Shown one piece after another: positions 34,513 to 34,747 of a DNA stretch of 64,000 nt. Every line of letters begins with the position of its first letter. Positions within the stretch are counted from its first letter, which is position 1. The DNA is from Escherichia coli (GTDB lineage: Bacteria; Pseudomonadota; Gammaproteobacteria; Enterobacterales; Enterobacteriaceae): assembly GCF_009931435.1 (NCBI RefSeq), contig NZ_CP043414.1, one strand, 5' to 3'. The notes under the pieces were generated by a model. The model worked only from the letters and a program-made list of their open reading frames with translations, did not search any database and was not told the origin of the DNA. The translations under genes and the position numbers were made by a program.

Positions 34513-34747
34513 TTGTATCAGTGGTTAAACACGCAGCTTAAAAGATCAGGGATTTGCGCTATTGCATTTCGCTCAGCGAGTTCGCGCCCTGGTTATGTTG
34601 AATGGCGTGGCGTTATTGCCTCTGTTCGCACCGTGGAGCGGCATACCCAGACCGTTGTATGCTTTATTTGCCGGGCGAAAGGGGATGCCCGCCATTGCGC
34701 GATATTTTATGGATGAGTTAACCACGCGGCTTGCCAACGGGGTCTGA
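34513..34747 (+). pseudogene. yqfE: possible remnant of a LysR-family gene (yqfE-like fragment)
   Basis: Only short broken ORFs; the 61-aa ORF ends like a LysR C-terminus; from memory K-12 has a pseudogene between argP and rpiA. Confidence 0.3.

Follow-up and report, generated by a model that had tools for sequence, protein, structure and literature searches.

The closest described counterpart of the locus analysed here is yqfE (b2915), which in E. coli MG1655 is annotated as a pseudogene of 231 bp, located on the rpiA strand between rpiA (b2914) and argP (b2916). No functional study of yqfE was found in the literature, and a search for b2915 also returned nothing relevant. The locus has nonetheless been mentioned in other contexts: yqfE was removed in the reduced-genome strain DGF-298 (PMC10652928), and the yqfE-argP spacer was predicted to be a CsrA sponge, with a probability of 0.64 (PMC8144298); one GGA motif only is read in this spacer in the sequence analysed here. 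As for the neighbouring argP gene, its reported control by PhoB was not supported by ChIP-seq (PMC10294691).

The window, i.e., the whole stretch of 64,000 nucleotides of E. coli DNA that was analysed, carries at this place a 504-bp argP-rpiA spacer that is 99.8% identical to E. coli strain R32_14_1F. The spacer is surrounded by the following genes:

31180-33345, minus strand: scpA, a neighbour
33528-34421, minus strand: argP, 297 codons, core gene of the left flank (ORF list and RefSeq annotation of the 99.8%-identical L001)
34926-35585, plus strand: rpiA, 219 codons, core gene of the right flank (RefSeq annotation of L001 and sequence)
from 35841, plus strand: serA, a neighbour

A decayed LysR-like gene had been predicted between argP and rpiA, with the yqfE pseudogene of K-12 named as its possible identity. 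MG1655 does annotate yqfE at the matching place, and position, strand and sequence all agree, as judged from the MG1655 annotation, the translation and an alignment with a K-12-type genome. The interval is very probably the E. coli pseudogene yqfE, present here as a further-decayed allele and as a non-functional deletion scar. The identity of this pseudogene was already known and the remnant is ordinary; with a curated pseudogene confirmed and an allele more eroded than that of K-12, the biological weight of the observation is small. What is added to the known yqfE is its parent island and where this occurs, the origin of the left part of the ORF from an azoreductase gene, an allele with a 45-bp deletion and an ERIC polymorphism.

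From the argP start to the end of the ORF, the spacer is composed of the following segments:

34422-34477, no strand: argP-upstream DNA, common to island-bearing strains and identical at 56/56 nucleotides to L006:1938-1993 and L012:1438-1493
34478-34517, no strand: filler of about 40 bp, which contains the palindrome GCCGTCGGC and is present in all four remnant alleles aligned
34518-34598, minus strand: remnant of an azoreductase-like 3' end, residues 184-207 of 209 and then the stop codon (blastn and translation)
34562-34747, plus strand: chimeric ORF, the window allele of yqfE, 61 codons with a TTG start (ATG in K-12), "hypothetical protein" in RefSeq for L001
34600-34747, plus strand: LysR remnant, codons 236-242 and 258-298 plus the stop codon of a 298-codon LysR-type regulator gene
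34600-34622, plus strand: LysR codons 236-242 (scar anatomy by blastn)
34621-34622, no strand: junction left by an in-frame deletion of 45 bp, in which QFACKQGLANGELVR (codons 243-257) was lost, its placement being ambiguous by 1 nucleotide (alignments)
34622-34747, plus strand: LysR codons 258-298 plus the stop codon (scar anatomy by blastn)

Descent of the right-hand part from a LysR gene is clear. In BLASTP, the ORF of the window matches the intact 298-aa regulator with E=1e-29 and with 48/48 aligned residues identical (236-242 and 258-298), the homology is in register with the C-terminus, and remnant and intact gene have their stop codon in common. The similarity to a LysR protein on which the original prediction depended is thus present, and it covers exactly the last 48 codons of the ORF. 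At the DNA level, the remnant is identical to the intact gene of ST69 (L012; 168/168 nucleotides) and 97-99% identical to the alleles of L006, L007 and L013. It keeps 48 of the 298 codons (16%) of the intact gene, being truncated at its 5' end and carrying the single in-frame 45-bp deletion, and its frame is otherwise continuous. The ORFs had been described as short and frame-broken: the ORF is indeed short, but its LysR stretch is a single uninterrupted frame. Similarly, only a part of the interval proposed as LysR-like (34513-34747) is of this origin, namely 34600-34747, while 34518-34598 is the antisense of the azoreductase-like 3' end. The start coordinate of that interval is set by another ORF (34513-34716, 67 aa), which overlaps out of frame and has no family similarity.

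The remnant corresponds to the end of the substrate-binding domain only, and the DNA-binding domain is absent: HTH_1 (PF00126) was sought with Pfam on the ORFs of the interval without any being found, and the intact gene is matched from codon 236 onwards only. Pfam gave no match even at E<=10 for any of the three ORFs of the interval (the 61-codon ORF, the overlapping 67-codon one and a 39-codon one), NCBIfam returned noise-level matches only for the 61-aa ORF, and the window ORF does not hold a complete LysR_substrate domain (PF03466, about 209 positions). At the profile level, a LysR signal is seen only in the longer, 76-codon K-12 allele, which reaches 29.4 bits against PF03466 (cut-off 28) over profile positions 151-208 of 209 only, without a Pfam match for the window ORF. 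Since the stub has lost the winged-helix domain for DNA binding, along with about 80% of the effector-binding domain, it cannot act as a LysR regulator. RefSeq/PGAP names it as a normal CDS in many E. coli, either "LysR substrate-binding domain-containing protein" or "hypothetical protein"; this label is an annotation issue, as it designates a fragment whose N-terminus is not derived from LysR.

Because the fragment adjoins argP and both belong to the LysR family, one could think of a decayed tandem duplicate of argP itself. However, the K-12 allele shares 28% identity with ArgP over 39 residues, as compared to 100% with the island regulator, which refutes such an origin; in addition, with the ArgP model, which has a cut-off of 297, the intact island regulator reaches 58 bits. 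The probability that we leave to an argP duplicate is practically nil.

The left-hand part of the ORF comes from elsewhere. Its start codon and its first 13 codons, MHFAQRVRALV[V/M]L, are read from the azoreductase remnant in antisense, and the annotated yqfE ORF is hence a chimera, in which antisense azoreductase DNA is fused in frame to a LysR tail. The azoreductase remnant shows 82-94% blastn identity to the azoR-like 3' end in L006-L012, and the minus-strand translation of 34518-34598, PGRELAERNAIAQIPDLLSCVFNH followed by a stop, is identical to residues 184-207 at 19/24 positions and similar at 23/24 (pairwise E=6e-13); on this strand, 34518-34598 descends from an FMN-dependent NADH-azoreductase (Flavodoxin_2). 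On the argP side, similarity to the island strains stops at 34477, the left junction of the deletion scar. No source of the filler (34478-34517) was detected by sensitive blastn in eight island alleles, nor in the window, and its 10-11-nt resemblance to the arms of the ERIC element is within chance.

The junctions are the same in all four divergent remnant alleles aligned, an argument for the composite scar having arisen only once. Its LysR piece has an identical counterpart among living alleles, whereas the azoreductase piece is diverged by 6-18%. A possible explanation is that the LysR piece, being contiguous with rpiA, can recombine with intact haplotypes, while the azoreductase piece of about 80 bp is isolated between the junctions. 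As to argP, any promoter element located more than 56 bp upstream of the gene would be part of the scar in most E. coli, but part of the ferric-reductase-like gene (its 3' end) in island strains. As the sequence shared between these strain groups ends 56 bp upstream of the argP start, they may control argP differently.

The parent structure is a four-gene redox island of about 3.4 kb, which occupies the argP-rpiA slot with the regulator gene divergent from the other three. It comprises:

island, argP side, minus strand: ferredoxin/ferric-reductase family protein, 441 aa, a FAD/NAD oxidoreductase (Pfam confirmed)
island, minus strand: DUF1471 (YdgH/BhsA/McbA) protein, 86 aa (Pfam confirmed)
island, minus strand: FMN-dependent NADH-azoreductase-like protein, 209 aa (PF02525 at E=4e-41)
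island, rpiA side, plus strand: LysR family regulator, 298 aa, with HTH_1 at 4-63 and LysR_substrate at 88-294, its stop codon 55 bp before rpiA

Clean annotated genomes with this island are those of ETEC6335, O157:H16 Santai and ST69. With the island DNA of GCA_046507405.1 (L005) as query, 248 of the 5426 complete E. coli genomes were found to carry the island, with the same flanks, and 233 of them over at least 80% of its length. In a scan of one genome per species, the regulator also sits in the same slot in Escherichia whittamii and in cryptic Escherichia clades (Escherichia sp. E1V33 and MOD1-EC7003), and it does so at 73% identity in a Pseudocitrobacter MAG, which has the reductase and DUF1471 genes and no azoreductase. 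The check for intact orthologs proposed with the original prediction hence had a positive outcome, a full-length LysR gene being found in this slot in E. coli, other Escherichia and Pseudocitrobacter. The presence of the regulator in the same slot in outgroups implies that the island, which 4.6% of complete E. coli genomes and sister Escherichia lineages still have intact, is the older state and the stub the leftover of a deletion.

Nothing relevant was found in the literature on this combination of genes, and a word-indexed search of 5.8 billion proteins with the K-12 allele gave short Escherichia/Shigella fragments only, with no full-length relative. One variant of 92 aa (P0019) has a more LysR-like N-terminus, and its contig carries about 3 kb extra between argP and rpiA. 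It is predicted from GCA_046507405.1, labelled E. coli, where argP, rpiA, serA and every island gene have frameshifts. This is probably an uncorrected long-read assembly, and its predicted proteins, such as P0019, are artefactual fragments. Island sequences (e.g., L007:2008-5299) fall into at least three allele groups that are 4-8% apart in nucleotide sequence. IS1 insertions and IS1-adjacent deletions are also found in the island of some genomes. In E. coli PK8261 (L013, NZ_CP080155.1 977943-985046), an IS1 copy joins tdcR-yhaB-yhaC directly to a truncated island azoreductase gene, an arrangement that points to an IS1-mediated rearrangement or deletion having removed the argP-side DNA.

The homologies, the scar junctions, the frequencies in the E. 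coli population and the position retained in outgroups are all direct observations, and they suggest the following history. The ancestral argP-rpiA slot would have held the island of about 3.4 kb, with three genes on one strand and the divergent LysR regulator gene ending 55 bp before rpiA. In the lineage leading to most E. coli, deletions would then have taken nearly the whole island, after which four pieces would have remained: argP-upstream DNA (56 bp), the filler (about 40 bp), a piece of the azoreductase 3' end (about 80 bp) and, from the LysR gene, its final 63 codons. The yqfE ORF would have arisen from this as an accidental chimera, with a start codon and 13 first codons from antisense azoreductase DNA that happen to be in frame with the LysR tail. 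In the window allele, a further in-frame deletion of 45 bp would have reduced the tail to 48 LysR codons, with TTG where K-12 has ATG, and the insertion of an ERIC element between the remnant and rpiA would have been the last step. We infer both the order of these events and the absence of function of the stub. Taken as a whole, the locus provides a clean example of stepwise island decay, by large deletions, a small in-frame deletion and the insertion of a repeat element.

Further variation exists among the alleles of the stub. The spacer of the window was aligned with those of its near-twin and of three other E. coli. The 45-bp segment absent from the window allele was counted with a 65-bp probe centred on it: it is present in 3779 of the 5426 complete genomes, including every intact gene examined. 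About 65% of these genomes have a K-12-like stub of 76 codons, 4.6% have the island, and up to about 30% are without the segment, the latter figure being an upper bound since megablast needs an exact word of 28 nucleotides. In addition, public protein variants include further small deletions of 1 to 25 codons at various places, frameshifted read-through forms and many replacements. Together with IS1 in the island, these bear the signature of unconstrained decay.

These variants also bear on whether the chimeric ORF could encode a small protein that is expressed and has acquired a new function. In most E. coli the reading frame is open, many of its length variants are in frame, PGAP annotates it as a CDS, and a weak AGGGA motif is read in the sequence 9 nt upstream of its start. 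Nevertheless, the start codon is ATG in K-12 and TTG in the window, 15 codons are dispensable in about 30% of the genomes, and many other deletions, frameshifted read-through forms and replacements exist. The bias towards in-frame variants among those aligned is itself in part an artefact of choosing full-coverage matches for the alignment. No promoter was predicted for the ORF, a scan around it having revealed no promoter- or terminator-like site, and the curators of MG1655 call yqfE a pseudogene. Expression of such a small protein is thus very unlikely.

The pattern of substitutions is ambiguous in this respect. All four differences between the window and the intact allele L006 in the LysR part are synonymous, as read from the alignment, and the last 10 or so codons (YFMDELTTRL) are unchanged in 22 of 22 aligned alleles, which could hint at constraint. 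The synonymous-only pattern may equally stem from differences between alleles that are older than the deletion, or from recombination with intact alleles; the LysR part of the window is 100% identical to the ST69 allele, which makes the latter conceivable. Given this identity to an intact allele, one may not presume that the polymorphism of the remnant is younger than the deletion.

Between the remnant and rpiA, two further features are found:

34763-34889, no strand: ERIC element, a 127-bp imperfect palindrome with 25-nt terminal arms at 34763-34787 and 34865-34889
34886-34891, plus strand: TATAAT box, candidate -10 element of rpiA, 35 bp before the start of this gene and restored by the ERIC insertion

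An ERIC element had been noted beside the remnant, and the palindrome lies directly downstream of it; we take it to be a member of the ERIC/IRU family, which consists of imperfect palindromes of 127 bp. Its length of about 127 bp, its terminal inverted arms and its multicopy character all agree with this family. The predicted fold has a free energy of -39.7 kcal/mol (z = -5.5), and a query containing the element has a median of 6 matching places per E. coli genome. A second copy of the ERIC core is present in the window at 22817-22856 (minus strand), with 3 mismatches to the copy at 34809-34848. In Rfam, which holds no ERIC model, the only RNA family match of the region is V_AS5, with 41.4 bits for a gathering score of 96, over the full model length and on the ERIC element itself (34767-34890, minus strand). 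The V_AS5 family (Vibrio antisense RNA AS5) apparently overlaps an ERIC-like repeat.

The empty site of the insertion, TTTTTTTGTATATAATGCG, is seen in K-12, MINF_7C, cS76a and the intact-island strains, and its TATA is duplicated in the filled site. Of the 5426 complete E. coli genomes, 42 have the filled site, and Escherichia sp. MOD1-EC7003, in which the island is still present, carries an identical copy of the element at exactly this site (L011:5917-6039 approximately). This suggests either an old polymorphism or a transfer by recombination.

The insertion affects a conserved sequence, TTTTTGTATATAAT, found at 35-48 bp from the rpiA ATG on its upstream side; between E. coli and Pseudocitrobacter this box does not vary, even though neighbouring bases do. 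The box is probably the -10 region of rpiA. The ERIC element lies within it (34755-34768 and 34883-34891 in the window); through the TATA duplication a perfect TATAAT is regenerated next to rpiA, and everything upstream of it is replaced.

In this light, the stub might have been kept for the cis-regulation of rpiA, if promoter or upstream elements that limit deletions were located in the 55-bp spacer and in the end of the LysR gene. The invariance of TTTTTGTATATAAT over this range of genera is in line with such a role, as are the right-hand end, which is the same in every remnant and intact gene, and the invariant last codons. However, the window, like 41 other E. coli genomes and Escherichia sp. 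MOD1-EC7003, has the ERIC element between the whole remnant and TATAAT; since these strains are viable, nothing upstream of the -10 element is strictly required. Moreover, a consensus scan did not return a sigma-70-like promoter, and cis-regulation would account for the last few tens of bases at most and not for the ORF. We therefore regard retention for rpiA control as rather unlikely. Stronger versions, in which the chimeric ORF is a young lineage-specific small protein or the tail an upstream element needed by the rpiA or argP promoter, appear highly improbable; if either were true, the deletion scar would have been co-opted and not merely tolerated.

The locus, which we continue to read as a decayed yqfE, can finally be compared to three known systems. 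The first is the yqfE of K-12, to which it is alike in its position between rpiA and argP, its orientation and all its scar junctions, with about 97% nucleotide identity over the shared part. The window allele differs by lacking 45 bp (15 codons) of K-12 yqfE, which makes it 61 instead of 76 codons long, by its TTG start instead of ATG and by one V-to-M change (V12M); apart from V12M and the ATG/TTG start, the MG1655 translation equals the window ORF plus the 15 lost codons. Outside the ORF, the window has a 1-bp deletion in the upstream filler (34478-34517) and a net insertion of 123 bp next to rpiA, where it carries the ERIC element that is absent from K-12. The second is the intact regulator (WP_000568123.1 in ST69 and WP_024189814.1 in ETEC6335), whose 3' end the remnant represents, both ending at the same stop 55 bp before rpiA when ERIC is not counted. 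This gene is 298 codons long, encodes both HTH_1 and a complete LysR_substrate domain, and is paired divergently with the azoreductase-like gene, whereas the window keeps 16% of it. The third is the ERIC/IRU family, which the element of the window resembles in its length of 127 bp, its multicopy and intergenic nature and its central core, GTGAATCCCCAGGAGCTTAC...GTGACTGGGGTGAGCG, read on the minus strand; nothing in the element is unusual, and it is its presence at this site that constitutes a rare polymorphism.
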